Assembly (NCBI GenBank): GCA_024276825.1 | Contig: JAJRWI010000068.1 | Location: 1 to 25,589, forward strand | Direction of reading: 5' to 3' | From: an archaeon | GTDB taxonomy: Archaea; Asgardarchaeota; Thorarchaeia; Thorarchaeales; Thorarchaeaceae | DNA: 25,589 nucleotides | In this document: one piece after another, positions 1 through 24,840 of the stretch | Numbering within the stretch: the stretch's first letter is position 1 | Layout of the letters: each line of letters begins with the position of its first letter | Notes under the pieces: model-generated | What the model saw: the letters and a program-made list of their open reading frames with translations, nothing else | What the model was told of the DNA's origin: nothing | Database searches by the model: none | Program-made: the position numbers and the translations under genes

Positions 1-714
1 AGCATCCTAATTGAGGACTATGAACAGCTTGTAAAACAATTTCATCTTCGTAAGTATGAAACAATGTTAATGTTTGCAGGTCGAATAGTTGAAACTCTCT
101 TTATTTGCCTTTCTCATCTCACAACAAATCCTGCAATCGATAGGCCATCATTGAATGTAATTGAAAAAGAACTGAAAAACCTACCTGAAAATGAGCATCC
201 ATCATCTATACGAATTGTTATTCCCTGCTTAGCAAAAGCCATTTACAAACTTCGAAGTCGTAGAAATGCAGTACATGTTAATTCTGTTTCACCAAATTAT
301 ATGGATGCGCTATTAGTACTCTCAGTGGTTCAGTGGATTCTAGCTGAATTAGTACGCGTATATTCAATGGATGATCCCCATTTGATTCTGAATACAATTA
401 ATGGACTAGTTAGTAGGAAAATGCCCCTTGTCGAGGAGATTGAAGGTGAACTTATAATCTTGGAACCTGATCTATCCGCACATGACTCGATTCTTCTTTT
501 ACTCTATTATCAATATCCCAATTACACGAACTTTAATGACCTTGTAAATTCACTATTTATGTTTACCAAGAATAATATCTCTACCTCATTAAAAAATGCC
601 ATCAAGGCACGATTAGCGTTCAGAAAAGAAGATAGAGTATATCTTACTGCTCGTGGTATCGAGTTTATTGAAACCAAATTCTCATCCATATTAGCAGGAG
701 GACTGACAGATTGA
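1..714 (+). CDS. Putative HEPN-like ribonuclease with C-terminal winged helix (5'-truncated by the window edge)
   Basis: Frame 1 is open from base 1 (SILIEDYEQLVKQFHLRKYET-MLMF...), so the ATG at 64 is probably internal. Helical N-domain has GRIVE and IYKLRSRRNAVH (R-x6-H / RNxxH, nt 253-276), the HEPN-type active-site motif. C-terminal ~70 aa (DSILLLLY...NISTSLK...VYLTARGIEFIE) fits a wHTH. Confidence 0.7.
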   Translation, partial: SILIEDYEQLVKQFHLRKYETMLMFAGRIVETLFICLSHLTTNPAIDRPSLNVIEKELKNLPENEHPSSIRIVIPCLAKAIYKLRSRRNAVHVNSVSPNYMDALLVLSVVQWILAELVRVYSMDDPHLILNTINGLVSRKMPLVEEIEGELIILEPDLSAHDSILLLLYYQYPNYTNFNDLVNSLFMFTKNNISTSLKNAIKARLAFRKEDRVYLTARGIEFIETKFSSILAGGLTD

Positions 715-1214
715 CGAACATCTCTGAGAAAAAATGTCTAATTTGTGGCAAAGCAATATCGTCTGACTCGGCATTTATCGAAGCTATATTAGATACAAAT
801 GAACGAGTAATAGCACACAAGTTCTGCGTTCTTGGAATGAAAGCTCTTCTAGAATTGATGGGATTTGACAATGAAAGTGATAGCTCAGAACTATTGAAGG
901 GAGTTGTTAAAAAGTATGAAGACAAATGGATACTATTACGTCGATCATTTCCAAATCAAAAAATCCCCATTCTAATATACTTCCAGCTTCATAAAGGCAA
1001 TCCAAAATCAATGCAAGATTTGAAAGATTGGCTACGAATAAACAAAATGAAATATTCAAACCCATCCGTTCCAGTGAAACGCCTAGTTGATGGTGGTTTT
1101 CTTGCAGTCTTAGTTAATGAGAATAACACGGATCAATACTTCATCACTGATGATGGGTCAAGAATGCTAACGAAGTATCTTCATAACAAATCAAATGGTG
1201 GCGATCCAAAATGA
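711..1214 (+). CDS. Zinc-finger (CxxC-x23-HxxC) plus winged-helix protein
   Basis: TTG start overlaps the upstream stop (TTGA, 711-714), with GGAGGA at 697-702. CLIC...AHKFC at residues 9-39. C-terminal NPSVPVKRLVDGGFL...YFITDDG is a wHTH pattern. Confidence 0.75.
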   Translation: MTNISEKKCLICGKAISSDSAFIEAILDTNERVIAHKFCVLGMKALLELMGFDNESDSSELLKGVVKKYEDKWILLRRSFPNQKIPILIYFQLHKGNPKSMQDLKDWLRINKMKYSNPSVPVKRLVDGGFLAVLVNENNTDQYFITDDGSRMLTKYLHNKSNGGDPK

Positions 1215-1621
1215 ATTATATAATGTGCTTTATTTGTCAATCACCAACTGCTGATGATGAATCCGTTTTGAGTATTACAACAAATGATGGCCATAAGATT
1301 CACGCCCATTATGATTGCATAGATGCATTACTAGGTCTGATGAAACAAGTTTCAACAAAAAAGCATGTCAGTGAATTAGTTCAACCTTCTGCTCCTAGTG
1401 CAAGTCAATTAATTGGAGAACTATTTCTACAGGGTTGGTTTTCTGAACTTCGGTCATTAAATGATGTGATATCCAAACTACAGCAAAGGGGATTTCATTT
1501 CGATAAATCAACAGTATCAAATGCTCTTAAAAGTTGTACAAAACGGAACATCTTGTCACGCAAAGGAACTCGTGGGGACTACAGATACATTCAGAAGAAG
1601 CCGCCATTGGCAAGGAATTGA
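1211..1621 (+). CDS. Zinc-finger (CxxC-x23-HxxC) plus winged-helix protein, N-domain paralogous to 711..1214
   Basis: ATGA overlap at 1211-1214. CFIC...AHYDC at residues 6-36. C-terminal GWFSELRSLNDVISKLQQRG...STVSNALKSCTKRNILSRKGTRGDYRY is a wHTH pattern. Confidence 0.75.
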   Translation: MNYIMCFICQSPTADDESVLSITTNDGHKIHAHYDCIDALLGLMKQVSTKKHVSELVQPSAPSASQLIGELFLQGWFSELRSLNDVISKLQQRGFHFDKSTVSNALKSCTKRNILSRKGTRGDYRYIQKKPPLARN

Positions 1622-3018
1622 CAAATATGTTGATAGGGAAATCATTAGATGGTGATGACATTAGGCTTTCAACAAAAGATGTTGCGACATCAGGAACTAC
1701 AATCCTTGCTATGCGTGGGGCAGGAAAAAGCTGGCTAGCAGGTGTTCTTGCTGAGCAAATGGCACTTGAGAAAATCCCATTTGCTATTATTGATCCCGAA
1801 GGGGAATATTGGACTCTGAGAGCTAATTTCTCAAACATTGTTGTAGTAGGCGGTGAACATGGCGATGTTCCATTAGATATCTCCATTGCAGAAACAATAG
1901 CACAAATTTCAATCGATGAACGTTTGGAGATTATTATTGATTTGAGCGATATGAGACGAAGGCAGCAATATGAGTTTCTAGAAAAGTTTTTGACATCCAT
2001 ATTTACCCGTGAAACTAAAGTACGAATTCCGTTTTGGGTTTGTCTTGAAGAGGCTGATTTATGGGTGCCACAAACTGGCAATCCCCTTTGTAAAATTGCA
2101 GTTCTGGACTTGTGTCAGAGGGGTCGTAAACGTGGCCTTGGATTCACTCTTGTAAGCCAACGACCTGCAGTTATTGATAAAACCGCATTAAGTCAAGCTG
2201 AATTCAGGTTCTTTAAGCGATTCAGTCAACCACATGATTTGCGTGCTGTCGCTGATTATCTCAGTCCACACGCTCATCTAACCAAGATTCTCCCATCTCT
2301 ATCAACACAAGAAGCCCTATTCTATGCGCCCACGATTAATGATAAACCACTTCAAATTGTTGTGGCTTCAAGAATTACCCCTCATGGAGGAACAACTCCA
2401 ACTGGTGTGAAAACTGTCAAACCCTCAACAACAACTCTTTTGATGAAACAAAAGCTTGAGAAGATTCTTGAGGAAAAGAGGAAAGAATTAGCTGAAATAC
2501 GCACCCAAGAATCCAAGATTAAAGCACTTCAGGAAAGGATTCATGCACTGGAAAAAGAACTGGAGAAAACAAGACTTGCTTCTGATGTTGCATCTATTCT
2601 TTCTAGAAGTACATCTAAAGACCAACGAGAAAAAGAATCCAGTCCACCTCCAAGTATGCAACATAAGGAAATAGATTCCAAGAACAATAAGGATTGTAAA
2701 ACTTCTGACACCCCTTTATTCACATTGCTTGATGAAATGATAGTCTTTAATAGATCCATTAAAATTAATCTACACACAGGACACGTGGTAGGTTCTGAAT
2801 TGGTAAATATGCTGCTGAACCGTTTAAATCCCAATGAACGCGTAATATTTCTAACATTAATGGTCCGTAATAGCAAGTTATCTGCAACTCAGCTTTCAAA
2901 AATAACTGGATGGAGTGCCAATAAAGTACGAAAAATCATCAAACAACTGATTCGAAAAGGTGTAGTAAAATCATATGGTCGCAGTAAAGGGGGCATATTA
3001 TATTTCATAAATATTTAA
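1618..3018 (+). CDS. HerA/FtsK-superfamily (DUF87-like) P-loop ATPase with coiled coil and C-terminal winged helix
   Basis: Walker A AMRGAGKS (1708-1731), IIDPEGEY, Walker B CLEEAD, and QRGRKRGLGFTLVSQRP (Arg-finger/sensor motif of HerA/FtsK). Heptad segment KQKLEKILEEKRKELAE...LEKELEK. Terminal LNPNERVIFLTL...SATQLSKITGWSANKVRKIIKQLIRKGVV wHTH. Start moved from 1534 to the in-frame TTG at 1618 (TTGA overlap, as for gene 2); ATG 1627 is an alternative. Confidence 0.88.
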   Translation: MTNMLIGKSLDGDDIRLSTKDVATSGTTILAMRGAGKSWLAGVLAEQMALEKIPFAIIDPEGEYWTLRANFSNIVVVGGEHGDVPLDISIAETIAQISIDERLEIIIDLSDMRRRQQYEFLEKFLTSIFTRETKVRIPFWVCLEEADLWVPQTGNPLCKIAVLDLCQRGRKRGLGFTLVSQRPAVIDKTALSQAEFRFFKRFSQPHDLRAVADYLSPHAHLTKILPSLSTQEALFYAPTINDKPLQIVVASRITPHGGTTPTGVKTVKPSTTTLLMKQKLEKILEEKRKELAEIRTQESKIKALQERIHALEKELEKTRLASDVASILSRSTSKDQREKESSPPPSMQHKEIDSKNNKDCKTSDTPLFTLLDEMIVFNRSIKINLHTGHVVGSELVNMLLNRLNPNERVIFLTLMVRNSKLSATQLSKITGWSANKVRKIIKQLIRKGVVKSYGRSKGGILYFINI

Positions 3019-3736: not shown

Positions 3737-5533
3737 TCACAGGTCCTTGTAGACCATGTCCAGTTCCTCATCAGTCACATCAAAAGTGACATTATGGGGC
3801 GGCAGTGGTTCGGTGTAGAAGAACTCTGGCAGTCTGTCATCGGCATTTGTGAAGCCTGCCTTGGCATTGAACTCGCGTTCTTTCTTTAGGACCGCCAGAC
3901 CGTACTCTGTGACATCAATGTCTTTGCCCAAGAATGCGTCCACTGAGCCCTTCATTCCAGCAAACCCGTCATCATTATCTAGGATGCAGAATGCTATGAA
4001 GAGGCAGTATCCACTAGAGTCGATATATGCAGTTGTTGACTGAAATGCACGAGAGAGTTCCGCCTTGTCAAGGGCCCTTGGATCTGTGACCTTTCCCTTA
4101 ACTCCCAGAATCTCTGCTGCTATAGTATAGCCTGAGGTGTGATCTGCACCCATTGTCGATGTTGCATAGGTGACTCCAATTCCTCGTATGGGTCTCGGAT
4201 CATATGCTGGAAGCGCCTGCCCTTTGACCACTGGAATCCTTGTGACACCCAATGCCTCGCCTGCGCTCTTTGTGCCTGAGCACACTAGGCGACCCTCAAT
4301 GCTCTTCTCATCATATGCCTTCTTGAGGAGTTCTATTGCTGCCTGCCCATCACCAAAGTCAATCACTCCGGCTTCCATGAACATTGCAATTGTGTTTCCT
4401 GTTTCAATGGTATCAAGTCCGAGATCATTGCAGAGCCTGTTCAACTCTGCGACATCTTGCAGTTTGTCAATCCCCAAATTGGTTCCTAGGGCCCATGCAG
4501 TCTCATATTCCAATGGGCCAACATGGTGCTTTCCAGTGTCTTCATATGGCACAACATTGGAACATCTCATCACACATGCAGGATGACATGCATGACCATA
4601 CCTCCCCTCTGCAGAATCACCAAACTTCTCTCTGGTCTTATCTACAATCTCATGGACTGCTTCACCTGATATTTTCGCGGCACCTTCAAACCTCCCCGAT
4701 TTGAAACCTCTAGTCGGAAGTCCACCTGCCTCGTTAATGATGTTCTGAAGAATGTTGGTTCCATAGTTTGCAAGACCTCCAAATGGCTTGCCCTTATCAT
4801 CCTTGAGCTTTCCTGTGACAGGATGCGCTCTGAGCGCCTCTCTCAGTTTGGTAATCGACTCAGTGAATTTGTCGGAATCCTTCGGTTCTGGTGCCTTTCC
4901 CTCTGAATCATCAGTGATTATCGTCACAATACGCTTTGATCCAAATACTGCCCCCAGACCTCCACGACCGGCGTATCTCCCTGGATCCGTGTTCTCAATG
5001 TTGTTTCCGAAGACTCCCGCAGCCTTGGAAAGTCTCTGTCCCGCAATACCGCAGCCAATGATGCCTGGCTTGTTCGGATAATCCTTCCATATCTTTGTTG
5101 TCAAGTCATAAAGACCTAGTCCGGCATATTCGTTCGTCACTTTGATCTCGCATTTGTCCTTACTAATGATGATACTATACCAATCGTTGCCCTTGGGCAT
5201 CCCTTCAATGACGATTCCCCTAATTCCCAATCGTCCTAATTTTGTGGCAGTCAGTCCTCCAGCATTGGCCTCCTTGATCCCCTCAGTAAGGGGAGATTTA
5301 GCCCCAACACTCAACCTTCCCGAAGAGGGTGCTTTAGTACCGGCGAGGAGTCCCGGCGAAATTACAATCTTATTCTTCTCTCGAAGAGGGTGACACTTTG
5401 GATCAACCTCTTCAGACACAATGGTGGATGTGAATGCACGACCCGCAAGGGTCTCCCATTTTGATGGTACCTCCTCCCATTTGTAACTGAGATCGTTCAT
5501 GTTTATTCTTAATATCTTAGCCATTTTACTCAC
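3737..5533 (-). CDS. aor: Tungsten-dependent aldehyde:ferredoxin oxidoreductase (AOR/WOR family)
   Basis: 598 aa with family motifs GRLSVGAKSPLTEGIKEANAGG, AGRGGLGAVFGSK, CHPACVMRC and GYCLF ([4Fe-4S] cysteines), EYET, LGLDTIETG, PAYDPR, GADH and DDRLPEFF. Confidence 0.95.
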   Translation of the reverse strand: MSKMAKILRINMNDLSYKWEEVPSKWETLAGRAFTSTIVSEEVDPKCHPLREKNKIVISPGLLAGTKAPSSGRLSVGAKSPLTEGIKEANAGGLTATKLGRLGIRGIVIEGMPKGNDWYSIIISKDKCEIKVTNEYAGLGLYDLTTKIWKDYPNKPGIIGCGIAGQRLSKAAGVFGNNIENTDPGRYAGRGGLGAVFGSKRIVTIITDDSEGKAPEPKDSDKFTESITKLREALRAHPVTGKLKDDKGKPFGGLANYGTNILQNIINEAGGLPTRGFKSGRFEGAAKISGEAVHEIVDKTREKFGDSAEGRYGHACHPACVMRCSNVVPYEDTGKHHVGPLEYETAWALGTNLGIDKLQDVAELNRLCNDLGLDTIETGNTIAMFMEAGVIDFGDGQAAIELLKKAYDEKSIEGRLVCSGTKSAGEALGVTRIPVVKGQALPAYDPRPIRGIGVTYATSTMGADHTSGYTIAAEILGVKGKVTDPRALDKAELSRAFQSTTAYIDSSGYCLFIAFCILDNDDGFAGMKGSVDAFLGKDIDVTEYGLAVLKKEREFNAKAGFTNADDRLPEFFYTEPLPPHNVTFDVTDEELDMVYKDL

Positions 5534-5557
5534 TATAGACTAATGTACTGCAGAACT

Positions 5558-5566
5558 TGTATATAT
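5558..5566 (-). promoter_or_regulatory. Probable TATA box of a leaderless aor transcript
   Basis: Minus strand ATATATACA ends about 25 nt upstream of the GTG at 5533; no obvious SD. Confidence 0.5.
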
Positions 5567-5568
5567 GC

Positions 5569-5613
5569 GATATGATTGCTCGATTCATATCGATATGAAT
5601 TGTGATGCATATC
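5569..5613. promoter_or_regulatory. Tandem palindromic operator(s) upstream of aor
   Basis: GATATG-N11-CATATC (5569-5591) abuts GATATG-N10-CATATC (5592-5613). The junction forms the perfect 18-bp palindrome ATTCATATCGATATGAAT (5583-5600). Confidence 0.65.
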
Positions 5614-5696
5614 ATGTGCTTTGACTCCGCGCTGCCTTTGAAGAGAATGGCCTTGCTGATTACTGTTCTTTCATAAGCGGGCTGCTTTGAAATGTG

Positions 5697-6116
5697 CTAG
5701 TCATCAAGAAATCTAGTGGGCACCATTGCAGCGGTTCTCACAAGTTCAGCAGCTGCCTTTGTTGCACGCATGACCTTGCCCATATCCCCGGTGAGTTTGA
5801 ACTTTCTTGCCATGATCCCCTTTATGGGATCTATCTTGCCTTGAAACAGCAGTTTCCAATTCTCATATGGTCCTGAATAAATGAACTCTGCGGTCTCGTC
5901 TGGTCTTGCCATATGAGCCTCCCTGCACTTGCCATGCCACAGATCAAGGTAGAACTTGATGGGTTCTTTAACGACTTTTCCATCAGCAGTGATCTCGAAG
6001 ATGAAGTCTCCTTCCCACCAAGAGGCAGCATCAGCATAAGCCTCATTCTGATTGAGTTTCTCCATGTATGCACTGATCCACTCATCCGAAGGGAACAGCA
6101 ACTTTTCCTCGCTCAT
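5697..6116 (-). CDS. SCP2 sterol/lipid-binding domain protein
   Basis: FPSDEW...LNQNEAYADAASWWEGDF, YLDLWHGKC, SGPYENWKLLFQGKIDPIKGIMARKFKLTGDM is the prokaryotic SCP2 pattern. AGGAG SD upstream. Confidence 0.88.
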   Translation of the reverse strand: MSEEKLLFPSDEWISAYMEKLNQNEAYADAASWWEGDFIFEITADGKVVKEPIKFYLDLWHGKCREAHMARPDETAEFIYSGPYENWKLLFQGKIDPIKGIMARKFKLTGDMGKVMRATKAAAELVRTAAMVPTRFLDD

Positions 6117-6203
6117 TGTTCTTATCTCCTGCTATCCTTATGACTACAATGATAGTCAAAAGCCTTCTGGATTTCTAAATCACTGCATTACCATTGATTG
6201 AAG

Positions 6204-6854
6204 TCAAAGTTTCATACGATAATCGCATAGATCAAGGTCCATGACTCGTGCTAACTCGACCTCTCTCTGAAAGCGACCTATCTCATTGGCTGAATGCGCG
6301 TCAGATCCTATGGTGAATTTGCAGCCCTGATCACGGGCGAGCTCGATAAAATCAAGATGCTTCACTTCATATCGCGAACTCAATTCAATGGCCACATTAT
6401 TCTTTGCAAGGGATCTTGCCACAAGTTCACCATAGGTGGGACTATATGACTGGAGGTATCCGTCAAAATGTCCCAAGATGTCGATGATTCCCAACTCGGC
6501 CGCTTTGGAGACCGCTTTCGCCCACTCATTTGAGTCAAGACAGAAATGAACGGACCCGATGATAATATCGAATTGATCATATCCTTCCTCGATGGGTGCG
6601 AGAGTCCCGTCGGGCATTATGTCGACCTCTGCACCATCAAGGATTCTCAATCCATACTCGTTTCTCATCTCATTTATTATGCCCCGTCGCCGTTCAATCA
6701 GTCCGCGTTCATCCTTACTGCCAAGTGAGGGCCAGAAATGATCCGTAATTGCTATCACATCTAATTTGATCTCATGTGCCCTCTTGACAATTCTTTCGAT
6801 AGTATCGTATCCATCGGAGAACTCAGAATGGACATGAAGGTCTTGTCTTATCAC
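6204..6854 (-). CDS. PHP-family phosphoesterase (YcdX/histidinol-phosphatase-like)
   Basis: DLHVHSEFSDG, AITDH, GAEVD, IGSVH, ILGH and GSDAH metal ligands. Start moved from 6902 to the GTG at 6854, 7 nt after the sufB stop. Confidence 0.88.
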   Translation of the reverse strand: MIRQDLHVHSEFSDGYDTIERIVKRAHEIKLDVIAITDHFWPSLGSKDERGLIERRRGIINEMRNEYGLRILDGAEVDIMPDGTLAPIEEGYDQFDIIIGSVHFCLDSNEWAKAVSKAAELGIIDILGHFDGYLQSYSPTYGELVARSLAKNNVAIELSSRYEVKHLDFIELARDQGCKFTIGSDAHSANEIGRFQREVELARVMDLDLCDYRMKL

Positions 6855-6861
6855 CTGATGT

Positions 6862-8094
6862 TCACATCCCACCCTTAAGACTGAGTTCAATTGCCTCCTC
6901 AATGGATCTCTGGAGTATCGGCGGTAGGTCTGGCACCTCTAGTTTCATGAAACCGCTTACTATCAGAGATGTCGCCTCCTCCTTACCGAGACCCCTACTC
7001 ATCAGATAGTTCAACTGTTCAGCCCCCACTTTTCCAACAGTGGCCTCATGACTGAGTTCAGCCCCTTCAACACGGGCATCTAGCATCGGAATTGCCCTGA
7101 TGGAAGCCTGACTGCTGAGCAGAAGGCCATCGCACTCAAGTCTGGCCTTGGTGTCTTCATTGAGACCCACGAGATCTCCGCGTGCAATGATGTGTGCCTT
7201 GTCTGTAGCGATGCTTCTGGAAACCACCTTGCCCGTTGCCCTCCTAGCCTCAAGGCTTACTGCACCTCCGATGTCGTACTCGGACTCGCCAACACCATTG
7301 ACAACAGAGTTCAGTTCAGTCTTTGCATAAAGTCCAACAAGTCTGACCCTCGGGAACGTTTGAATCGACCTTAGTGGACTGAGAATTACATAGTTGGACA
7401 CAAAGATTCCGTTCTCGTCCACAATGGCCGCTGACCTCGGTCGAATGAGAGTCTTCTCACTCCAGTTGTGGACCATTGTAAATGATAGCTTTGCATTCCT
7501 CTTGATATAGAACTCTGAGATGCCTAGATGAAGAGACCTCTCAACACTTGATGGCGCAGCGCATCCAGTGATGATGTGCATCTCTGAGCCTTCTTCTGCA
7601 ATGATGAGATTATGCACATTCTGAACCGACTTGCTCTTCTTCAACAGCAGGCAGCTCTGAACTGGTGCTGTTATCTTCACGCCCGGTAGCGCCCTGATGA
7701 AGTAGCCCTCATAGACCTCGAGTTCGCTTCTTGCTGTAAACTTGTCAGTGTCTACGGGTACTGCATTCCATAAGTAATTCTCAACCCAATCATACTTCTG
7801 CCTTGCTTGACTGAGGGGCATGATCTCAAGACCCTCTTGTTTGATCATGACATCTGCAAGAAATGCCTCATTGTCCAGCTGAATGAATGCCCCCGCAGCC
7901 CTGTTCTGTTCGGGATCAATCCCCACAGACTCCAGCAGTTGTTTCTCGGTTGATGATATCTCGTCCAGCGACTCCAGCTCTGCAATGTCAGACTCAGGAT
8001 ACTCAAACTCTTCCAGATCCAAATCCGACCCATACCTTGCAGGCTTGTTCAATGCTTCCTTTGCCCGCTTCTTTCGTTCATTGTCTGAAGTCAT
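6862..8094 (-). CDS. sufB: SufB/SufD-family Fe-S scaffold (SmsB-type, two-gene system)
   Basis: GYFIRALPG, PVQSCL, QNVHNLIIAEEGSEMHIITGC, HLGISEFY, ECDGLLLS, ELSHEATVGK and YLMSRGL. GGAGGA SD. Directly downstream of sufC. Confidence 0.93.
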   Translation of the reverse strand: MTSDNERKKRAKEALNKPARYGSDLDLEEFEYPESDIAELESLDEISSTEKQLLESVGIDPEQNRAAGAFIQLDNEAFLADVMIKQEGLEIMPLSQARQKYDWVENYLWNAVPVDTDKFTARSELEVYEGYFIRALPGVKITAPVQSCLLLKKSKSVQNVHNLIIAEEGSEMHIITGCAAPSSVERSLHLGISEFYIKRNAKLSFTMVHNWSEKTLIRPRSAAIVDENGIFVSNYVILSPLRSIQTFPRVRLVGLYAKTELNSVVNGVGESEYDIGGAVSLEARRATGKVVSRSIATDKAHIIARGDLVGLNEDTKARLECDGLLLSSQASIRAIPMLDARVEGAELSHEATVGKVGAEQLNYLMSRGLGKEEATSLIVSGFMKLEVPDLPPILQRSIEEAIELSLKGGM

Positions 8095-8974: not shown

Positions 8975-9033
8975 ACGTTTGATGATTGCCAAACATTTAT
9001 ATGCATCTGATATGTTTGATACTTGTCAAACAT
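8975..9033 (+). promoter_or_regulatory. TATA box flanked by two 22-bp inverted-repeat operators
   Basis: ACGTTTGA-TGATTG-CCAAACAT (8975-8996), TTTATATG (8996-9003) and ATGTTTGA-TACTTG-TCAAACAT (9012-9033, perfect arms). Confidence 0.75.
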
Positions 9034-9050
9034 TAAACGAGTTGAAATAC

Positions 9051-9938
9051 ATGTCTACTGACTTTGGTACGATATTAGACGATCTGAAGTCCAGCTTTCG
9101 AGTGGCCAAGGAGAACATCGGAACATTCTTTCTCGCGAATCTTGGCATGATTGTCCTTTTAGCAGTCATGCTCTTCATAATTGGTATTCCCTTTGTTCTT
9201 CTGACCCTCTGGACTGGTGGGCAGTTCTGGCTTGGTCTTGCAACAATGGCGTATATGAACCCCATATTGATAGGGTCTGGAATACTTGTGATGAGCATTC
9301 CATTCTCAGTGATATTCTTCACGGCATTCGGGTCAATGTTTGGACTGACCCGAGATGTGGTGGAGTCTGGCGAAGGAAAAGCCGAATCAGTGTTCTCATG
9401 GTTTAGAAGCCACTTCATGTCATTCGCATCTGCTGGGATTATTCTCAGCCTGATCATTGTGTTTCCAATGATTCTCATCGGACTGATTGCAGTCTATCTC
9501 AACGGTGGTCCTCTGATAGGACTTGCAGCACAGATCAATTCTGTATTCAATTTTGTCTGGGTGTTCATTACATTCGGCCTGACATCAATGGTGTTCCCTG
9601 CAATCGTCAATGGGGCTGGAGTTCAGGATGCATTCGTCCAGTCCTTCAAGCTCTCTATCTCCCGCTTTGATCGAGTGTTTGGTCTGCTGTCATCCATTTT
9701 TGTCATTACACTCATCACACTCTTGCCGATGATTGCATTCAATGGCATGTTTGGTTTTCACATGTACCAATACTTCAATCTCCTTCTGATTGGAGTGGCA
9801 GCATGGTCATTCATCTCGATCATTCTCTGGATACTATTGATCTATCCGATGGCCTTGATAGCAACGACCCGACTCTATCACGAGTTCTCTGGTCTGTCCA
9901 TTCATGTGCCAGAGCCTGCAGAGCTTCCAGTCATGTGA
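9051..9938 (+). CDS. Polytopic membrane protein (about 6 TM), paralog of 9951..10883
   Basis: Long hydrophobic segments. Start moved to ATG 9051 (MSTDFG), which aligns with the paralog's MEQEFG and lies downstream of the promoter. FPAIVNGAGVQDAFVQSFKLS resembles YciC/DUF975/GDPD-membrane-domain-like families. Confidence 0.8.
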   Translation: MSTDFGTILDDLKSSFRVAKENIGTFFLANLGMIVLLAVMLFIIGIPFVLLTLWTGGQFWLGLATMAYMNPILIGSGILVMSIPFSVIFFTAFGSMFGLTRDVVESGEGKAESVFSWFRSHFMSFASAGIILSLIIVFPMILIGLIAVYLNGGPLIGLAAQINSVFNFVWVFITFGLTSMVFPAIVNGAGVQDAFVQSFKLSISRFDRVFGLLSSIFVITLITLLPMIAFNGMFGFHMYQYFNLLLIGVAAWSFISIILWILLIYPMALIATTRLYHEFSGLSIHVPEPAELPVM

Positions 9939-9950
9939 GGTGAGTAAGAA

Positions 9951-10883
9951 ATGGAACAGGAGTTTGGTTTCTCATCATTGATTGATGACCTGAAGATCAG
10001 CATCCGTTTCGCAATCAAGAACTTCATATCGTTCCTTCTTGGAATGATCGGGGTTCTAATTGTGACTGCATTACTGGTTGGAGTATTCATGGCAATTAGT
10101 CTCTCCATCCTTACACTGGTGCTGGGTGACTTTCATAATCTCATGGAATTCTTTATGGATATTGGGAGCCTCTTTGCAACAGGAAATGTGCTCTCTTCAG
10201 CTGGAGTACTGTTTACAGTGATCTCATTGTTCATGATGCCGCTTGCAGCAGCATTCTTTGTTGCAATCGGCGCTCTGTTTGGAATGAGCCGTGAGATTGT
10301 TGAGAGCGATGGGACAACTGTGAGCGGCATCTTTGTCTGGTATAGGACCAAGTTTCTCTCGCTCGCAGCAGGAGGAGTGTTACTTCACATCACTGTGATG
10401 ATTCCTATTCTTGTGATGTGGTATATTGCCATAGTCATCACTCAGACAGTCACACTGACAGGTGCATTTGTTGGTGTTTTGACTTCTATGTCATTTATCT
10501 GGTTTGTGATCAGTGGTGGCATGCTCTCAATGATGTTCCCCGCTATTATCGATGGTGCTCCCGTTCTGCAGGCATATAAGCAATCGGTGCGACTGAGTCT
10601 AACATACTTTGACAGAGTGTTTGCCACTTGGCTCTCATTTGTTGTGATGTTATTCTTGCTGGGGTCTCCTTTGAACCTTGGAATGCCAGCAATGGCCTAT
10701 TATCTTGGACCCTTGGGAGCAGTCGTTTCAATTATCATCTTCGTGTTCGCCATAATACTATTGCCTGCTCTGTCTATTGCATTAACAAGACTCTACATGA
10801 TGTTGACTGCCGAGGGCGAATTTGAAGATTCTGACATCTCGCACGAGGAGCACTCAGATTTGCAGTTGGTGGGTGGTGTATAA
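9951..10883 (+). CDS. Polytopic membrane protein (about 6 TM), paralog of 9051..9938
   Basis: GAGGTGA SD. Shares DDLKxS, GxxFGxxRxxVES, FPAIxxGA and LSxxxFDRVF with the upstream gene. Confidence 0.85.
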   Translation: MEQEFGFSSLIDDLKISIRFAIKNFISFLLGMIGVLIVTALLVGVFMAISLSILTLVLGDFHNLMEFFMDIGSLFATGNVLSSAGVLFTVISLFMMPLAAAFFVAIGALFGMSREIVESDGTTVSGIFVWYRTKFLSLAAGGVLLHITVMIPILVMWYIAIVITQTVTLTGAFVGVLTSMSFIWFVISGGMLSMMFPAIIDGAPVLQAYKQSVRLSLTYFDRVFATWLSFVVMLFLLGSPLNLGMPAMAYYLGPLGAVVSIIIFVFAIILLPALSIALTRLYMMLTAEGEFEDSDISHEEHSDLQLVGGV

Positions 10884-12364: not shown

Positions 12365-15300
12365 ATGGGTGATAAATATACTCTAGGCAAGGTCAGGGAC
12401 TTTGAGCTGAACACAGAGGATGCAGAGCGACTTGCTCGCTGCTTCAACTCCTTTGATGACAGCGACTCATGGCCCGGCGGGTTCACCCATGGCACTCCCT
12501 ACACAGCTGAGATGATCATGGAGCGATATAGGGATTTTCAGAACATAAGAGTCCTAGTGGCCTATGATAAGGACCTGATTGTCGGGCACTGCAATATTGC
12601 CCAGGGTGAACTTGATCCCGAGGCTGCTTATGTTGGCCTTCTTGGAGTTGACCCTGTATATCAGGGAAGGGGATATGGAAAGGCACTCCTTATCGAGTCC
12701 ATTGAAACAGCGGCTAGGTTGGGATTTCGACGCCTTGATCTTCACACTTGGGGCGGCAACCTGAAGGCCATGCCTCTTTACAAGAGAATCGGATTCAACT
12801 GGGTGCCCAATACACGCGTTCTCATGGAGTCCTACATGCCCGGAATTATCTCCTGTGAGATGTTCAAGGACTTCTTCGACCGCTATTATTGGTATGACAG
12901 TTTCAAGCGAGAGATCACTCAAGCTCCCGATGACAACAAGGAGGGCAAGATCGGCATATACAAGTACCATTTTCAAGGTCAGAACGGCGATGCTCTTGAA
13001 GTCATTATTGACAGAGAGGCAAAGGGGATATGTGCATTCACAATAACACTCGATGGCGAGGTCATCTCTGCCAGAGTTGTCCCAGAAGACCACATTGGCT
13101 TTATTGGCACAGGCCCACTGACTTTTGAGTTCTCATTGAATAATGGCACCTCGGGTGGTATCAACTACTCCCTGACTCTAACACCCTCGGACAAGATGCT
13201 ACTCGAGTCTAACAGATCAATCAATGGTACAATCTCGCAGAACGAGTCCGTCAAGCTCGACTTCAATCTCAGAATAAGTCCCGAAACCACCCAGATCGAT
13301 CGCGATGTTGTCAGTGATGAGAAGGTCTCCACTTATGTCGAATGGCGTCTAAGAATTAATGACAGAGAGATTGTGATGCATAGTGGTGTCATCCCTCGAG
13401 ATACGGTCTCTCTAATTTGCCCACCGCGACTTGCAACTTTGACTCCTGGCCAGAGCAAGATGATAAACCTGGGTCTGCAGAACAACCTGCCTGATAGGGT
13501 GTCATTTGATGTAGAACTCACCGCAGAAAACCATGTAGAAGTAGATGCCAATCAGTCCCATAGTCTTGAATCCAATGAACGGACCACAATTCCGATTGAG
13601 GTACATGCCAGACGCGATGAGAGGCTGATTCCAGTAAAGATACGGGTCTTCATGAATCAAGACTCTGAACGTCTGTTGGTTGCATCAAAGACATTGAATA
13701 TTGCTGTCATGGGACTAGGTGCAACTCTGGTGAGAGAGACCCTAGATAACAAGATTGCAATAGAGAACAACCATGTTCGATTTCTAATGAACAACTCGGT
13801 CCCGTTTTGTATCACTGATATCATGTACGACAATCTGAACATTCATCTGAATGGATTGGCTCTGCTGCCATCACTCGGATATCCCTTTCCAAGTGAAGGA
13901 AATGAGTGGGAACGAAAGAAGTTTGATGTGTTTCTTGTAAACAATGCGGAATTTTCTATGATTGAGCTCAAGGGCGAATCTGAAGAGCGCCCCGGATTGT
14001 TTCTGACCCTCCGATTCAAAGTTTATCCCAATAATGAGGTTCTAGAAGTATCTGCAAGCTTGGAGAATAGGGGCGGGCACGCTTACACAAACCTTGGCAT
14101 GAAGATTAATGGCTGGATGGATATCATGTCCGATAAGCTCTATGTGCCATTGAATGACAGAATCTATTGCATCTCATCAGTCGATTGGAATGGCTATCGA
14201 CAGTTGCCCAAGAATCCAAAGTACTATTCAGAGAGCTGGTTTGCCCTTTGTGACTCTGATAAATCTCCGCTTATTGGATTCATATGGGAACCCTCTAAAA
14301 TTGCCAAGGTCTCACTCATGAGGACTTGGAACTTTCCCACATTTGAGTACCATCTTCCAGATATGGATGCTGGCTCTTCATTTGAGTTCTCACTGGCACA
14401 TATTATGATAACTCAAGGAAATTGGTCAAGAGTACGTGATGTCTGGGCACGGCTGTATGGTGGCAATCTTAAAATGCCTAGTTCTTCCATAATCCACTCA
14501 GACCTAGAGGTCGAACTTGTGAGAGTAGGTAGTGGGGATCATCAGTCTGAATTGAGTCCTGTTCTAATTGACTCTGCACAGGTCAATGACATGGAATTGA
14601 GAGTCAGAGTGATCCATGAATCAGCAATCAATGGCAATGCGTCTATCGAAATGCCCGCGGGAGTAATGATTAATGGTGCCCAGAGGCTCAACATCACGAT
14701 TCCAGAAGTTTCTATCAATAATGAATTTGTGTTTCCTGTCAGAATCACTGCAGAGAAAGGTGAATGGTTCAGAGATGGAGGTCTCTTGGATATAAGAATC
14801 TCTGGTAGAATTGAAAGGATTCCTTTTGCAGCAGTGATTTATGACTCAAGTGTGGGCTTAAGGTACGAAACCAGTGATGTTGAGGGGTCCCAGATCATGA
14901 CTCTTGAATCAGGCGACTTTAAAATTGCAGTGTCTCCTGATAATGTCGGGGGCCTAGTCAGGTACGGTCCGGTGAATGAGCCCAGCCTATTCCTTGATAC
15001 GTTTCCCAAAGTAGAACCTTTCCTTTGGTGGGACCAATTCAATAGCGGATTAACACCGCATCTTCAAGCTTTTGGCGTTTGGGACTGGCAGACTGGCTTT
15101 TCAAAGGAGCAATGGCAGGTTCAGCCAATCTCAATTGGTTCTTGGCATGGATTCGAGTCCACTCTTATTGCAAAGAAATCGCCAGGTCTTAATGGGATAA
15201 CTTTGCGACTGCGTTTCTTGCTTCTCTCAGGGACTCCCCTGCTATTGTCACAGTTTATTATCGAAAACACTTCAAATATGGCCAGAGAATGTGCCTTTGG

Positions 15301-15661
15301 ATTCTGGGGTGTGCCTAGAATCAACAACAAGGCGCAATTCATCACACATACTATATACAATGGTCATCCTATGACATTCTTGCCCCGCGAGAACCAGACT
15401 CATATCCCTGTATTCTCAGATGAAGGATGGGCGGTCCTTGAAGAGCATGAGAGTGGGACTTGTCTGGGAATCATAAGCACAAGCAGGGACCATCATAATT
15501 TGCTATTGTCCGATTTTGGAATCAAGGGGATGATCTGCAGGTTCTCTCAGGACCGGTTGCTAGATGTTGGTGAATCCACTACCTGCTCTTTGTATTTAGC
15601 TGTGGTAAAAGAACCAAGGAGTGTTCGCCTGCTAAAGGGACTATCAGGTGCCATTGATTGA
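12365..15661 (+). CDS. Large GNAT-family N-acetyltransferase fusion protein
   Basis: N-terminal GNAT: YVGLLGVDPVYQGRGYGKALL (acetyl-CoA motif A) and LHTWGGNLKAMPLYKRIGF (motif B). About 900 further residues are beta-rich, with Ig-like segments (LTPGQSKMINLGLQNN, LESNERTTIPI). No signal peptide. Confidence 0.85.
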   Translation: MGDKYTLGKVRDFELNTEDAERLARCFNSFDDSDSWPGGFTHGTPYTAEMIMERYRDFQNIRVLVAYDKDLIVGHCNIAQGELDPEAAYVGLLGVDPVYQGRGYGKALLIESIETAARLGFRRLDLHTWGGNLKAMPLYKRIGFNWVPNTRVLMESYMPGIISCEMFKDFFDRYYWYDSFKREITQAPDDNKEGKIGIYKYHFQGQNGDALEVIIDREAKGICAFTITLDGEVISARVVPEDHIGFIGTGPLTFEFSLNNGTSGGINYSLTLTPSDKMLLESNRSINGTISQNESVKLDFNLRISPETTQIDRDVVSDEKVSTYVEWRLRINDREIVMHSGVIPRDTVSLICPPRLATLTPGQSKMINLGLQNNLPDRVSFDVELTAENHVEVDANQSHSLESNERTTIPIEVHARRDERLIPVKIRVFMNQDSERLLVASKTLNIAVMGLGATLVRETLDNKIAIENNHVRFLMNNSVPFCITDIMYDNLNIHLNGLALLPSLGYPFPSEGNEWERKKFDVFLVNNAEFSMIELKGESEERPGLFLTLRFKVYPNNEVLEVSASLENRGGHAYTNLGMKINGWMDIMSDKLYVPLNDRIYCISSVDWNGYRQLPKNPKYYSESWFALCDSDKSPLIGFIWEPSKIAKVSLMRTWNFPTFEYHLPDMDAGSSFEFSLAHIMITQGNWSRVRDVWARLYGGNLKMPSSSIIHSDLEVELVRVGSGDHQSELSPVLIDSAQVNDMELRVRVIHESAINGNASIEMPAGVMINGAQRLNITIPEVSINNEFVFPVRITAEKGEWFRDGGLLDIRISGRIERIPFAAVIYDSSVGLRYETSDVEGSQIMTLESGDFKIAVSPDNVGGLVRYGPVNEPSLFLDTFPKVEPFLWWDQFNSGLTPHLQAFGVWDWQTGFSKEQWQVQPISIGSWHGFESTLIAKKSPGLNGITLRLRFLLLSGTPLLLSQFIIENTSNMARECAFGFWGVPRINNKAQFITHTIYNGHPMTFLPRENQTHIPVFSDEGWAVLEEHESGTCLGIISTSRDHHNLLLSDFGIKGMICRFSQDRLLDVGESTTCSLYLAVVKEPRSVRLLKGLSGAID

Positions 15662-17065: not shown

Positions 17066-20000
17066 TTATGCAACGATTTTAACAGGCCGCAAGTTGACTG
17101 TTCGTGTTTCGCCATCCACAGTGTCGTATTTCACCATTCCAACAAGCTCGCCTTCAGCGCCAGGTTGAAGCTCGAAGTCAATCTCGACAACAGACACATT
17201 ACCTGGATCGATATTGCCCATATTGACAGACTCAATGTGATCTGTCAAATCCGGAACCCCCAGAGTCACCTGCACATTCTGCATGGAGATCTCAGAGTAG
17301 TTTCTCACGACTACACCGAACACGACTTTGCCCTCGCGAATCTTATATTCTACACTAATATCCATACCGGGTTCTAGTCCATCAGCAGCAGATTCTGCTG
17401 TTGTGATGGGTCTACCAGCGATGATGCGTTCACGAACTCGTCTAATCACTATGATTACAACAAACAGAGTTATGATTGCTATTGATGCTGTCACTGCCCA
17501 GTGCGTCTTTATATCAAAGTCAACATTGTCAGCAAGTCCGTCTCCATCTGTGTCTATGGACAGGGGATTACTTCCAAGCTTGATCACCTCATCGTAATCC
17601 GAAATGCCATCGCCATCACTATCAATGCTCCTCGTGTTTGTGTGATATATGAGATATTCATCGCCATCACTGAGACCATCCCCATCAGTGTCATTCAGTG
17701 CTGGGTCGCTCAACGAGACCATGATCTCGAAATAGTCATCTAGGCCATCGTCATCTGTGTCTGGCTTGAACGGGTTGATATGGTGAGTGATCACTTCATC
17801 ATAGTCGGTCACTCCATCATCGTCGCAGTCTGGATCAAGTGGATCGGTCGACCAGACCTCAATCTCATCATAGTCATCAAGCCAATCCCCATCAGTGTCA
17901 TAATTCGTGGCATTTGTTCCAAACACGCTGATCTCAATGGAGTCTAGAAGCCCGTCAGAGTCCGTGTCGTTGCTAGTGGGATCTGTGTGGTATAGGAGAA
18001 TCTCCTCTCCATCTATCAGAAGATCTCCATCAGTATCATCATTGTGCAGATCTGTGGTCACATGAATTTGAATCAGGCGGTGGGATGTGTCGTATATCCA
18101 CACATCAAAGCCAACTACCTCTTGACCATCAAGGAGATCATCATTATCATAATCGGGGTCAAGAGGCAGAGTGTTGTAGACCCTGAGTTCTTCGAGATTG
18201 GAGAGTCCATCTGCATCAGAGTCGTAGTCACCATCAAGAATGCCTGGATATGTCATATTCGTAATCGGGCTTGTGGCAGTGAGGAAGACCTCCTCATAGT
18301 CAGTTAACTGATCCGAGTCGGTGTCATTCAATAATGGGCTTGAGCCATATTCATTAATCTCATCACCATCACCAAGTCCATCACCATCCGTGTCAAAGAG
18401 CAACGGGTCTGTGTAATAGTCCTCTATCTCCTCATTATCATCCACCGAATCGCCATCTGTGTCCTTCTTCAATGGATCTGTTCTGAATTTGTTGATCTCG
18501 TCACCGTTTGATAATGTGTCCCCGTCTTCATCATCATTATAGTCTGATATTCCATTATCATTCGAGTCCTTATCTCTGGGGTCTGTCTTTGTCAGCACGC
18601 ATTCCTCATAATTCGTCAACAGGTCTCTGTCCTCATCATCAGCACCATCTATCACACCATCATTGTCTGTATCATTATTCCTTGGGTCTGTATGAGTCAA
18701 CAGGACCTCCTGAATATTGGTTAGTGTGTCATTGTCCAGGTCAACATCTGCATCTGAAACACCATTGTTTAGGGTGCTGTATCGCAAGGGGTCTGTCAAT
18801 GTGAGGTTCACTTCATGATAGTCAGTCAACGAGTCGCCATCGGTGTCCTCATTGAGCGGGTCAGTGCCAAGGGCGATCTCCTGAGCATCGAGTAGTCTAT
18901 CATGGTCAGTATCTTCCTCAAGTGGGTCCGTGTTGTACACGAACAGCTCCTGTCCATCGCTGAGCCCATCAGAATCACTATCGTACTCCAGTGGGTCGGT
19001 TTCAAAGACCTTGATCTCATCATAGTCAGAGACCGTGTCAGAGTCAGTGTCTGAGTTGTTCAACAATGTGTGATATGTGAATGCCTCTTCTCCGTCCTCG
19101 AGCAGGTCATTATCAGTGTCTCTGTCATTTGGGTCACTGGAGTAATAGAACAGTTCATCCCAGTCACTTATCTCATCTCCATCCGTGTCAGCCTTGTTAG
19201 GATTAGTGTGACTGATAAACACCTCATATGAATCTGAGAGCTTGTCTCCATCTGTGTCATACAGAGTGCAGTTGGTCTCATACAGATAGATCTCTAGAAA
19301 GTTACTCAGTCCATCTGCATCCTCATCATCATCTGCATCTGAGATACCATCAGAGTCGGAGTCAACAGATAGGGGGTTGGTGTGGCTGTTCCATATCTCG
19401 TCATTATCCGCAATTCCGTCATCATCAGTATCTGGGTCCAGAGGTGATGTCTTATACTCGTTCACTTCCTGACCATCAGTGAGATTGTCATAATCAGAAT
19501 CTGGATTTGTTGGGTCCGTGCCTTGGGCAATCTCCTCCCTGTCATTCAGTCCGTCGCCATCTTCGTCAGCCTGTGTTGGATCAGTGTTATATATTGCCCA
19601 TTCATCATAATCAGACAGCCCATCACCATCAGTATCATTTGAGTTGGGATCAGTACCTAGGTCTATCTCTTTCTTGTCGTTTATCATGTCATTATCACTA
19701 TCGGGGCTGTTCGGGTTGGTGTTGTAATTGTTGACCTCTTCGCTGTCAGAGAGCTGGTCACCATCAGTGTCCCATGAGGTTGGTGAGGTCTTCGATGTAT
19801 ACACTTCATAATAATCGTCTAACCCATCAGCATCCGAGTCTGTACCAGTTGGGTCAGTGTGATAGACAACATACTCCAAATAGTCTGATAGTCCATCGTC
19901 ATCAGTATCGGCATCAGTGGGTGATGAACCCGCCAGATTCACTTCCACTCCATCAGGAAGCAAATCATGGTCCGTGTCAGGGTCAGTCGCATTGCTATGG

Positions 20001-23863: not shown

Positions 23864-24840
23864 ACTAATAGTCCTCCTGTTTGTTCGCCCTTCCATGGCT
23901 TGACCTGGAAATAATCAAAAAAGTCGGCCTCAACTATTGAAACCTCCTCAAATGGTATGTTCATCTGGTTGAGAGCTTCAACAACTAAGAGTAATTGTTC
24001 ATCTGGATGATTCATAAAGACCTTGAGTGTGTTCCGCCCCGCCTTTGTCATATACTTCACGCCTGGGATTGAATACAACCGTTCTACGAATGTCTGAGAC
24101 ATACTATTCAAGACAACCTTTAGACTCTCTCCTTTTCCAGGCAGGGTCGAGATCAACTCTTGTGGTGTGCCAAACTGGCTGACCAATCCATTCTCGAGAA
24201 GCACAACACGACTGCAATAATCGGTGACCTCAAGGTCATGACTAATAATCACCATGGTTGTGCCCATTTCATAATTGAGCTCCTTGAGATAGTTCAGGGT
24301 TTCATGGCGAAGGTGCGCATCAAGACCTGTAGTTGGCTCATCAAGAAGTAGCACCTTCGGTTCATGTATCATCCCCAGACAGATTGAAACCCTCTTTCTC
24401 TCGCCGCCCGATAGTCTACTGACCCTCTTTGTCATCAGGTCCTCATCAAAACCAAGAATTGTGAGAATGCTCCGGGCTCGATCATCAATCTCTTTTGGTC
24501 TAAGACCAAAGCATCTTCCAAAGAACTGGGCATTCTGTAGTGCGCTGAAGTCATAATAGAGACTGAGGTGCTCCAACTGCGGCACATAACCCACCAGCAG
24601 ACTGATGAGTTTCTTGTTTCTAGTTACATCATAACCACTGATGTATGCTTTTCCAGAGGTGGGGCTTATCTGTCCAGTGAGAACTCTGAGCACTGTTGTC
24701 TTGCCCGCTCCTGATGCACCAATGATTCCAAGAAACTCGCGCTTATTGGCAAAGAATGAAACACCCTTCAGAGCGTAGAATTTCCCGAAGGCCACTTTGA
24801 GGTCAATGATATCAATCTCACGTTTCTTTGTTCCTGACAT
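23860..24840 (-). CDS. ABC-2/DrrA-type ABC transporter ATP-binding protein
   Basis: GASGAGKTT, YVPQ, LSGGERKR, LLLDEPTTGLD and IISHD, plus a C-terminal accessory domain. Start moved to ATG 24840 (GGAGG SD, 1 nt after the upstream stop). Confidence 0.92.
   Translation of the reverse strand: MSGTKKREIDIIDLKVAFGKFYALKGVSFFANKREFLGIIGASGAGKTTVLRVLTGQISPTSGKAYISGYDVTRNKKLISLLVGYVPQLEHLSLYYDFSALQNAQFFGRCFGLRPKEIDDRARSILTILGFDEDLMTKRVSRLSGGERKRVSICLGMIHEPKVLLLDEPTTGLDAHLRHETLNYLKELNYEMGTTMVIISHDLEVTDYCSRVVLLENGLVSQFGTPQELISTLPGKGESLKVVLNSMSQTFVERLYSIPGVKYMTKAGRNTLKVFMNHPDEQLLLVVEALNQMNIPFEEVSIVEADFFDYFQVKPWKGEQTGGLLV

Follow-up and report, generated by a model that had tools for sequence, protein, structure and literature searches.

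What are the four same-strand genes with which this archaeal contig opens, and to which kind of system do they belong? The window, that is, the whole stretch of 25,589 nucleotides (nt) analysed here from a contig of a Thorarchaeaceae genome (JAJRWI010000068.1), starts with a block at positions 1-3018 that encodes a member of a large unnamed protein family (gene 1, family G1), two small proteins with zinc-finger motifs (genes 2 and 3, or g2 and g3) and a short P-loop ATPase (gene 4, or g4). The best reading of this block, which we hold at about an even chance, is that it represents an undescribed conflict module, of the defence or the toxin type, with a HEPN-like effector. The observed basis for this reading consists of gene order, domain content, conservation of a motif, patchy distribution and a linkage between G1 and the ATPase in four phyla. 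The recurrence of this partnership is the strongest support for a joint function of the two proteins. The features of the block are as follows.

1-714, plus strand: gene 1 (G1 family), open at its 5′ side at the contig end; HEPN-like bundle, beta-hairpin and MarR-type winged helix
253-276, plus strand: gene 1 motif R85-S-R-R88-N-A-V-H92 (residues 85-92 of the partial protein), with R-Phi-x5-H spacing
711-1214, plus strand: gene 2, TTG start; Cys2-His-Cys zinc knuckle and PadR/MarR-type winged helix
1211-1621, plus strand: gene 3, ATG start; paralogous Cys2-His-Cys knuckle and 'c5'-type winged helix
1627-3018, plus strand: gene 4, probable start ATG 1627, TTG 1618 possible; FtsK/HerA-superfamily P-loop ATPase, coiled coil and winged helix
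1627-2391, plus strand: ATPase core of gene 4, with Walker A, Walker B and SQRP sensor segment
2824-3015, plus strand: C-terminal winged helix of gene 4, TrmB/HTH_24 type

Extent and distribution of the cassette

The window begins at base 1 of contig C62 in a genome of 2.9 Mb that is 98% complete. An earlier reading of the DNA, made from the letters alone (the sequence-only reading), had pointed to the four same-strand open reading frames (ORFs), which are indeed present on the plus strand at 1-714, 711-1214, 1211-1621 and 1618/1627-3018, and had joined them by three 4-nt overlaps. Two of these overlaps hold, since the start of gene 2 overlaps the stop of gene 1 (TTGA at 711) and that of gene 3 the stop of gene 2 (ATGA at 1211). 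The third is questionable: although TTG 1618 lies in frame, the public gene call of 463 aa corresponds to ATG 1627 and orthologues align from the Met at this position, so that a 5-nt spacer is likelier. In orthologues, the spacer before gene 4 is mostly 11-15 nt.

The cassette also extends to the left, as had been suspected. Full-length G1 relatives have 250-260 aa, and about 20 residues of gene 1 are therefore cut off at the contig end. On metagenomic contigs bearing gene 4 orthologues, G1 is preceded by a small winged-helix gene, g0. The order g0-G1-g2-g3-g4 is found in L014/L015, L016, L145/L146 and L147/L148 and, in its cut form, in the window, with 36-57% identity, and in the five-gene relatives the junctions are mostly overlapping or have very short spacers. 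The unit is therefore one of five genes, of which the window holds the right-hand four-fifths. The proposed architecture was thus one gene short, although its genes do occur together elsewhere, in an order kept in at least five divergent contig lineages including the window. Variants of this arrangement were seen as well: g0-g2-g3-g4 without G1 (L143), a single g3-like gene before g4 (L018), a G1-like gene immediately 5′ of g4 on one contig, and G1 on the opposite strand just after g4 (L017).

In two loci, a second same-strand trio follows g4 (L014:9469-11292 and L147:5135-7026, both on the plus strand). It encodes a protein of the c4 type described below, a 271-282-aa protein in which a helical head with a K-L-G-D-Q-K-A-H motif precedes a winged helix of the g2 type, and one more small protein. 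A DUF4145-like motif considered for the 268-282-aa proteins of this second module was dropped, as Pfam gave no confirmation and hhalign was not significant.

The description of the block as AT-rich and unlike its flanks is borne out: its guanine-plus-cytosine content is 37.3%, against 45.9% in the remaining window and 43.6% (standard deviation 2.6) in the genome, which places it within the lowest 1.9% of the 3-kb windows of this genome. True g4 orthologues occur in two of 400 Asgard genomes and G1 in 11 of the 400, plain operons with G1 as the last gene being found in other Asgard genomes. Neither gene 4 nor gene 1 is present in any of 85 genomes of the window's own family, so the block is not part of a syntenic core genome, and g4 has no match among the viral contigs of IMG/VR. 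The missing left part of the island lies on no other contig of the window's genome. In the relative G004, about 3 kb of unrelated genes lie beyond the MoaD genes and are followed by a block matching the start of contig C59 of the window's genome. As G004 has other genes at this site, the gap between C59 and C62 that holds the island is variable. The block is horizontally acquired, and is a rare archaeal form of a cassette without a name that is widespread in bacteria and archaea.

Several genes of the defence type lie close to the Asgard cassettes. A 253-aa protein is encoded convergently to the cassette in three loci (L014:11391-12155, L016:5029-5790 and L143:5166-5927, all on the minus strand). 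A winged helix at its N-terminus is combined with a C-terminal H-x-R...D...G-H-S motif like that of phospholipase D (PLD), and the protein matches the PADLOC candidate PDC-S05 (1e-16 to 1e-20). This protein, which does not occur in the window, may belong to the same island as its DNase arm or represent a defence gene of its own. In addition, L147 has a DrmC/MkoB-like PLD protein, L017 a restriction-modification pair, and L014 a second Mad8/HerA-like protein of 859 aa.

The G1 family and its partnership with the ATPase

A profile made from gene 1 and its six closest relatives was searched against 1.84 billion representatives clustered at 50% identity. The G1 family comprises at least 1291 such clusters at E<=1e-3, 409 of them at E<=1e-30, from many bacterial phyla and from archaea; nearly all have 245-265 aa, and none of the members scanned contains a Pfam domain. 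G1 is therefore not a rare novelty but a very large unnamed family, which usually occurs without any ATPase. In a limited check of the literature, no description of the core G1 cassette was found.

In 70 bacterial loci, which cover Bradyrhizobium, Streptomyces, Nocardioides, Mycobacterium, the candidate phyla radiation and others, the G1 homolog is almost always the last gene of a same-strand operon of two to four genes. Its upstream partners belong to five families of small proteins, c1, c4, c5, c6 and c7, and the junction between partner and G1 is usually a 4-nt overlap. The partner proteins inspected look like C-terminal winged helices, by eye or from weak Pfam matches. The hidden Markov model (HMM) of c5 matches g3 (1.5e-12) and that of c4 matches g2 weakly (1e-5), while the c4 model strongly matches small genes adjoining g4 orthologues (1e-19 to 1e-30). 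G1 operons are self-contained units, and their flanks are variable, with 112 Pfam families among 125 flanking proteins, the commonest being serine recombinases and UvrA-like proteins (four each), followed by methylases, ResIII and AbiEii. Within Bradyrhizobium, G1 is present in 8 of 151 genomes. Two of these copies are broken, by a frameshift split or a TGA interruption (G504:C1:99337-99964 and G536:C26:14784-15389), which indicates that the cassette is decaying in some lineages.

The partnership with the ATPase recurs outside Asgard archaea. On a Ktedonobacteraceae contig (L151), c4-G1-c4 comes after the gene of a more distant g4-like protein that shares the ATPase/coiled-coil/winged-helix layout, with a PF05168 HEPN gene and a TIR gene (TIR_2) on the flanks of this locus. 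Among 53 g4-like loci scanned in species genomes, three have c4 and G1 beside the ATPase: L153 from Chloroflexia (Chloroflexota), L157 from Methanobacterium, with the order c4-c4-G1-g4, and L158 from Bacillota. G1 occurs once in about 3-5% of genomes, and by our own estimate chance adjacency within 7 kb would be expected at about 0.01 loci in 53. New here are the Asgard form of five genes, in which two zinc-finger winged-helix paralogs and a minimal ATPase occur, and this link between G1 and the ATPase across phyla.

Among the other g4-like loci, those in metagenome-assembled genomes of Thermotogae and Bipolaricaulota (L159-L186 and L196) encode a conserved g4-like ATPase of about 510 aa, with 37-40% identity to the form in Chloroflexota and no G1 nearby.

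Protein domains, known systems and the rest of the window

Gene 1 is truncated in the window, and its domains are best seen in the full-length ortholog P0003 (53% identity), whose AlphaFold (AF2) model has a mean confidence (pLDDT) of 92.3 and consists of a helical bundle (residues ~11-155), a beta-hairpin and a winged helix. Its N-terminal domain is a four-helix up-down bundle of the size of HEPN domains (about 120-150 residues). In a structural search of 48,161 PDB representatives, the top match of this domain was the HEPN protein AF_0298 (2hsb; Z 11.0, root-mean-square deviation (rmsd) 3.4, 121 of 126 residues), and the HEPN-type C-domain of LinB scored Z 10.0. Foldseek against the PDB found only the MarR-type winged helix of G1, and this C-terminal domain matches MepR/MarR with Z ~10.5 and rmsd 1.8-3.4. 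Prediction of a G1 homodimer from two copies gave a score of 0.39 against a mark of 0.42, and counts neither for nor against complex formation.

The RSRRNAVH motif noticed earlier in gene 1 is a conserved feature of the family, in the form R101(45/53)-[NS](53/53)-x-R104(52/53)-[GND]-x-x-H108(53/53) in the numbering of P0003. It lies between helices 84-103 and 115-138 of the model and has the Rx4-6H spacing of HEPN domains. The Arg of the Rx6H arrangement (R101) is kept in 85% of members, and the R-x3-H pair (R104 and H108) is more strictly kept. E50, H108, D119, W129 and R136 are invariant in the family, and this invariant E/R/H/D/R constellation of the N-terminal domain points to catalysis or ligand binding. 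The HEPN-like domain of G1 is predicted to be the RNase effector of the cassette.

Genes 2 and 3, to which the sequence-only reading had assigned a CxxC-x23-HxxC motif and a winged helix, are paralogous, and each has this motif at the N-terminus, followed by the winged helix. The ligands in gene 2 (C9, C12, H36 and C39) are kept in 11 of 11 gene-2 clusters and those in gene 3 (C6, C9, H33 and C36) in six of seven gene-3 relatives, and from this motif both proteins are predicted to bind zinc. The AF2 model of gene 2 (pLDDT 83) shows a knuckle, a hairpin and a helix, followed by a hairpin and a PadR/MarR-type winged helix (residues 76-167), which matches PadR-type structures with Z 10.7. A search for g2 relatives found the family restricted to cassette contigs. 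The winged helix of gene 3 is of the c5 type found upstream of bacterial G1 genes, and has weak matches to the C-terminus of DndG in PADLOC (6.7e-5) and to Pfam MarR_2 (0.006). For genes 1-3, nothing reached the threshold in Pfam, NCBIfam, PHROGs or PADLOC. A winged helix, that is, a three-helix helix-turn-helix (HTH) with a beta-hairpin wing, is found in all the cassette proteins, in g3 and g0 by weak sequence matches only.

The N-terminal 255 residues of gene 4 form a DUF87-type ATPase of the FtsK/HerA superfamily, and are followed by a coiled coil, a low-complexity linker and a winged helix. Pfam reports DUF87 at 7.9e-11 (42.9 bits against a cut-off of 23.2) and HTH_24 at 7.4e-6. The protein has the GxGKS, acidic Walker B pair and Q sensor of this superfamily, in the form of Walker A G31-A-G-K34-S (K34 at nt 1726-1728), Walker B E141-E142 and the sensor LVSQRP. 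About 20 orthologs were found at 43-53% identity. Among 19 of them, the Walker A, Walker B and SQRP segments are nearly invariant; unlike this core, the coiled coil, the linker and the C-terminal winged helix are poorly conserved.

The earlier designation of gene 4 as a HerA/DUF87 ATPase is therefore right as to DUF87, but the protein is not a full HerA. PADLOC matches it to HerA (2e-19) and, over positions 23-312 of 314, to mad8 (6.8e-14). PDB HerA is matched at 2.7e-9 (4d2i), HerA chains there aligning over 131-250 only, and the curated NCBIfam HerA models NF040819, NF040937, NF042943 and NF042944 give ~30-48 bits against cut-offs of 600-970 and match only residues ~105-240, the part from Walker B to the sensor. 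No full-length match to a curated HerA model was thus found. The Walker A Lys is residue 34 of 463, so that only about 30 residues precede Walker A, too few for a HAS barrel. On these sequence features gene 4 is not a true HerA, and this name is valid at the superfamily level only. The absence of nurA-mre11-rad50 remarked on earlier extends from the window to the five-gene relatives, none of which has these genes or Sir2 or DUF4297 as neighbors; likewise, tblastn with the proteins of L018 found no HerA-NurA pair in the window's genome. L018 itself has, divergent from and adjoining its g3-like gene and g4, a DUF87 HerA-like (482 aa) and NurA-like (364 aa) pair (4924-7450, minus strand), and is the sole such locus.

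PADLOC assigns the cassette to no named system and has no match at all for genes 1 and 2, and several systems resemble it in part. First, the Abi_C RNases AbiJ of lactococci and SadR of S. aureus (PF14355; PMC13590631, PMC3710099) share with G1 a helical HEPN-type domain, the R-polar-x5-H spacing with Gly at +4 in most members, a conserved Glu of an earlier helix that aligns in hhalign, and a patchy, island-borne distribution, and in both a second domain that is not catalytic is fused to the HEPN-type one. The motif of Abi_C reads R-polar-X-H, X being most often five residues, and SadR is an Abi_C-domain RNase that protects against phages and plasmids (PMC13590631). In contrast to AbiJ and SadR, G1 has its HEPN-like domain at the N-terminus instead of the C-terminus, a second and more conserved Arg (R-x3-H) and a winged helix instead of AbiJ-NTD as the partner domain. 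Moreover, the small partner genes encoded with G1 are obligatory, while AbiJ and SadR each consist of a single gene. G1 has no match to the Pfam Abi_C model even at E 1, and is therefore called an 'Abi_C-like HEPN' protein, not a member of Abi_C.

Second, Sir2-HerA, DUF4297-HerA and the 'HerA/FtsK capture' systems likewise combine, in an accessory island, an ATPase of this superfamily with a predicted nuclease effector and HTH or winged-helix proteins; HerA/FtsK domains have repeatedly been 'captured' from element-like sources into conflict systems with HTH proteins (PMC10853773). The winged helix of gene 3 is also weakly like the C-terminus of DndG/DptG. However, g4 differs from the ATPases of the HerA-effector systems in that it has no HAS-barrel N-domain, has an ATPase part shorter by about 100-150 residues and adds a coiled coil and a winged helix of its own; in the anti-phage HerA models of NCBIfam it reaches 31-38 bits against cut-offs of 800-850. 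Moreover, the effector of the cassette is HEPN-like, whereas those systems use Sir2, DUF4297 or a restriction-type DNase.

Third, Mad8 of MADS (PADLOC PDLC04140) is the best full-length PADLOC analog of g4. Because nearly the whole Mad8 profile is aligned, g4 is an FtsK/HerA-like ATPase of the short, Mad8 kind. MADS, a proven defence system, is an eight-gene operon, mad1-mad8, with a methyltransferase, a kinase and a MAD3/4 module, and MAD7/MAD8 form one of the two ATPase-associated modules required for its defence, although the paper leaves open whether MAD7 or MAD8 is the ATPase (PMC13662399). The likeness is at the family level only, as the other seven mad genes are not matched in the cassette, and Mad8 lacks the coiled coil and winged-helix tail present in g4.

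Fourth, HEPN-MNT (HepT/MntA) is also a small mobile operon in which the HEPN protein comes right after its partner gene, often with overlapping stop and start codons. In the cassette, however, the partners are winged-helix proteins and none is a nucleotidyltransferase, and G1, a fusion with a DNA-binding domain, is twice as large as HepT.

On the 3′ side of the block lie ordinary chromosomal genes for MoaD-like (by eye), aldehyde:ferredoxin oxidoreductase and SufBD/SufC-like proteins, and no tRNA was found in the window. Two adjacent ORFs of 319 and 310 aa (8979-10883, plus strand), divergent from the SufC/SufBD-like genes, have no Pfam match at E<=1e-5. In a 1098-aa protein (12365-15661, plus strand), the recognized part is an N-terminal GNAT acetyltransferase domain (~50-147), and about 950 residues are unexplained. 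A 2276-aa protein (17066-23896, minus strand) with many bacterial TSP3 repeats, N-terminal beta-propeller matches and weak matches to BBS2/BBS7-type propellers is probably a giant surface protein.

Weighing the explanations

If the block is a conflict module, its core, shared with more than 1000 bacterial and archaeal clusters, would be G1, whose Abi_C-like HEPN domain, the predicted RNase effector, is joined to a winged helix. G1 is normally made with one to three small winged-helix partners, which would probably restrain or aim it. In the Asgard version, these partners would be g0 and the two zinc-finger winged-helix paralogs, and a minimal ATPase with a coiled coil and a fast-evolving winged helix would have been added. 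The winged helices and the ATPase would engage DNA, presumably invading or replicating foreign DNA, and ATP-driven loading or translocation would alter the assembly. The HEPN-like domain would then be freed to cut RNA, and the cell or the invader would be arrested. For the cassette as a whole, we thus infer RNase activity, complex formation, sensing of DNA and an antiviral role.

A broader proposal, which we regard as tentative, is that the G1 operons and their ATPase-bearing versions make up a new class of immune module across domains of life, with the Asgard five-gene form as the most elaborate. Interchangeable heads, namely an Abi_C-like RNase, a zinc knuckle, a coiled coil and a minimal FtsK/HerA motor, each tethered to a related winged helix, would assemble on invading DNA, and action of the motor on this DNA would license the RNase.

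A number of observations weigh against a conflict module with an RNase effector. As to the HEPN domain, the FAT domain of GIT1, a generic helical bundle, also matches the N-terminal domain of G1 with Z 9.7, and the fold match alone is therefore not decisive. G1 is not recognized by Pfam (Abi_C, HEPN and DUF4145 included), NCBIfam, PHROGs or PADLOC, and G1 with 16 relatives gave no match to the Pfam Abi_C model at E<=0.1-1. In hhalign, its N-terminal domain is not significantly similar to the PF05168 set, the family of HepT (probability 2%), or to eight Abi_C domains (probability 7%, E 0.005); in the latter, non-significant alignment, LRNKxGxAHG lies opposite the G1 motif, and the llE.vCk helix of Abi_C opposite the GKFvE helix. 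A profile of this domain found no HEPN chain among PDB sequences at E<=10, the matches being designed helical proteins at E>0.2. Gene 1 thus models as HEPN through its ortholog, as the sequence-only reading had predicted, but significant sequence or profile similarity to a recognized HEPN family was not found. As to the context, all 70 bacterial G1 loci are without the ATPase, and 50 of the 53 g4-like loci, including those in Thermotogae/Bipolaricaulota, Halobacteria and Nitrososphaeria, are without G1. The partnership is therefore optional. The genes flanking G1 operons are mostly ordinary, and a single query, a Bradyrhizobium G1, found no G1 in 72,556 plasmids and 50,697 phages. Finally, the nearest paralogs of g4 (40-43% identity) lie in element-like contexts, to which we return below.

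Of the rival explanations, the one that survives best, although unlikely, is a toxin-antitoxin or addiction module without a dedicated antiviral role, where G1 would be the toxin and the upstream winged-helix protein its antitoxin and autorepressor, acting through post-segregational killing, with the ATPase and zinc-finger proteins as accessory regulators. HEPN toxins are known to be encoded with a cognate upstream partner, as in HEPN-MNT, and the terminal position of bacterial G1 in operons of two to four genes, usually behind a 4-nt overlap, fits this pattern, as do the patchy distribution, the broken copies and the variable flanks. Nevertheless, the ATPase versions with three to five genes exceed typical toxin-antitoxin pairs, there is no nucleotidyltransferase partner of the MNT type, and plasmids, a common location of addiction modules, gave no G1 match. 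Because the boundary with abortive-infection defence is blurred, this explanation overlaps with the conflict-module reading.

An improbable alternative is that the block is a DNA-handling module of an integrated mobile element, serving segregation, transfer, packaging or replication control, in which the ATPase would be the motor, the winged helices would bind a sequence resembling a centromere, an origin or a transfer site and the N-terminal domain of G1 would be a non-catalytic adaptor. The block is AT-rich, accessory and located at a variable site, and the closest non-orthologous relatives of g4 speak for such a role. One of them, of 598 aa and 41% identity, lies at the end of a 251-kb JGI contig (L149, 1-8785) with Cdc6/Orc, MJECL34, RadA-like and ribbon-helix-helix (RHH) genes and many tiny ORFs, in a region that looks like an integrated archaeal element. 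Another adjoins a TraG/VirB4-like ATPase (L150). In PHROGs, g4 has a match at 4.9e-19 to PHROG 2666, which bears the label 'terminase large subunit', and AspA and TubR, both partition proteins, are among the structural neighbors of the winged helices. On the other hand, none of the five-gene cassettes was seen to have an integrase, replicase, capsid or conjugation gene next to it. Among the viral contigs of IMG/VR, a single one has G1 and none has g4, and the phage and plasmid records gave no G1. The G1 family mostly lacks the ATPase and has ordinary chromosomal surroundings, and the invariant residues of its N-terminal domain argue for more than an adaptor.

An ordinary transcription-regulatory cluster, made of winged-helix repressors or activators and an ATPase-coupled regulator with no conflict role, is very improbable: all five proteins do end in a MarR/PadR-type winged helix, but no conserved target operon adjoins the cassettes, whose flanks differ at every locus, the cassette is missing from all close relatives, and a HEPN-like domain and an FtsK/HerA ATPase are atypical of regulators. 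A eukaryote-like winged-helix complex of the ESCRT-II type was rejected, as the core family is mainly bacterial.

The observation from which this analysis started is thus partly confirmed and its interpretation, a defence or conflict system, partly supported; none of the four outcomes that it had named as fatal (genes that do not co-occur elsewhere, a gene 1 that does not model as HEPN, a match to an already named system, synteny with the core genome of all relatives) came about.

Candidate archaeal systems are scarce, and a compact, testable cassette here joins a large unnamed family with a HEPN signature to a minimal FtsK/HerA-type motor and zinc-finger DNA binders. Should the block serve a mobile element instead, Asgard archaea would have a new apparatus of the partition or transfer type. 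More than 1000 unannotated operons would gain a function if G1 acts as an RNase effector, and the optional ATPase would show how a DNA motor is bolted onto a toxin-type core.

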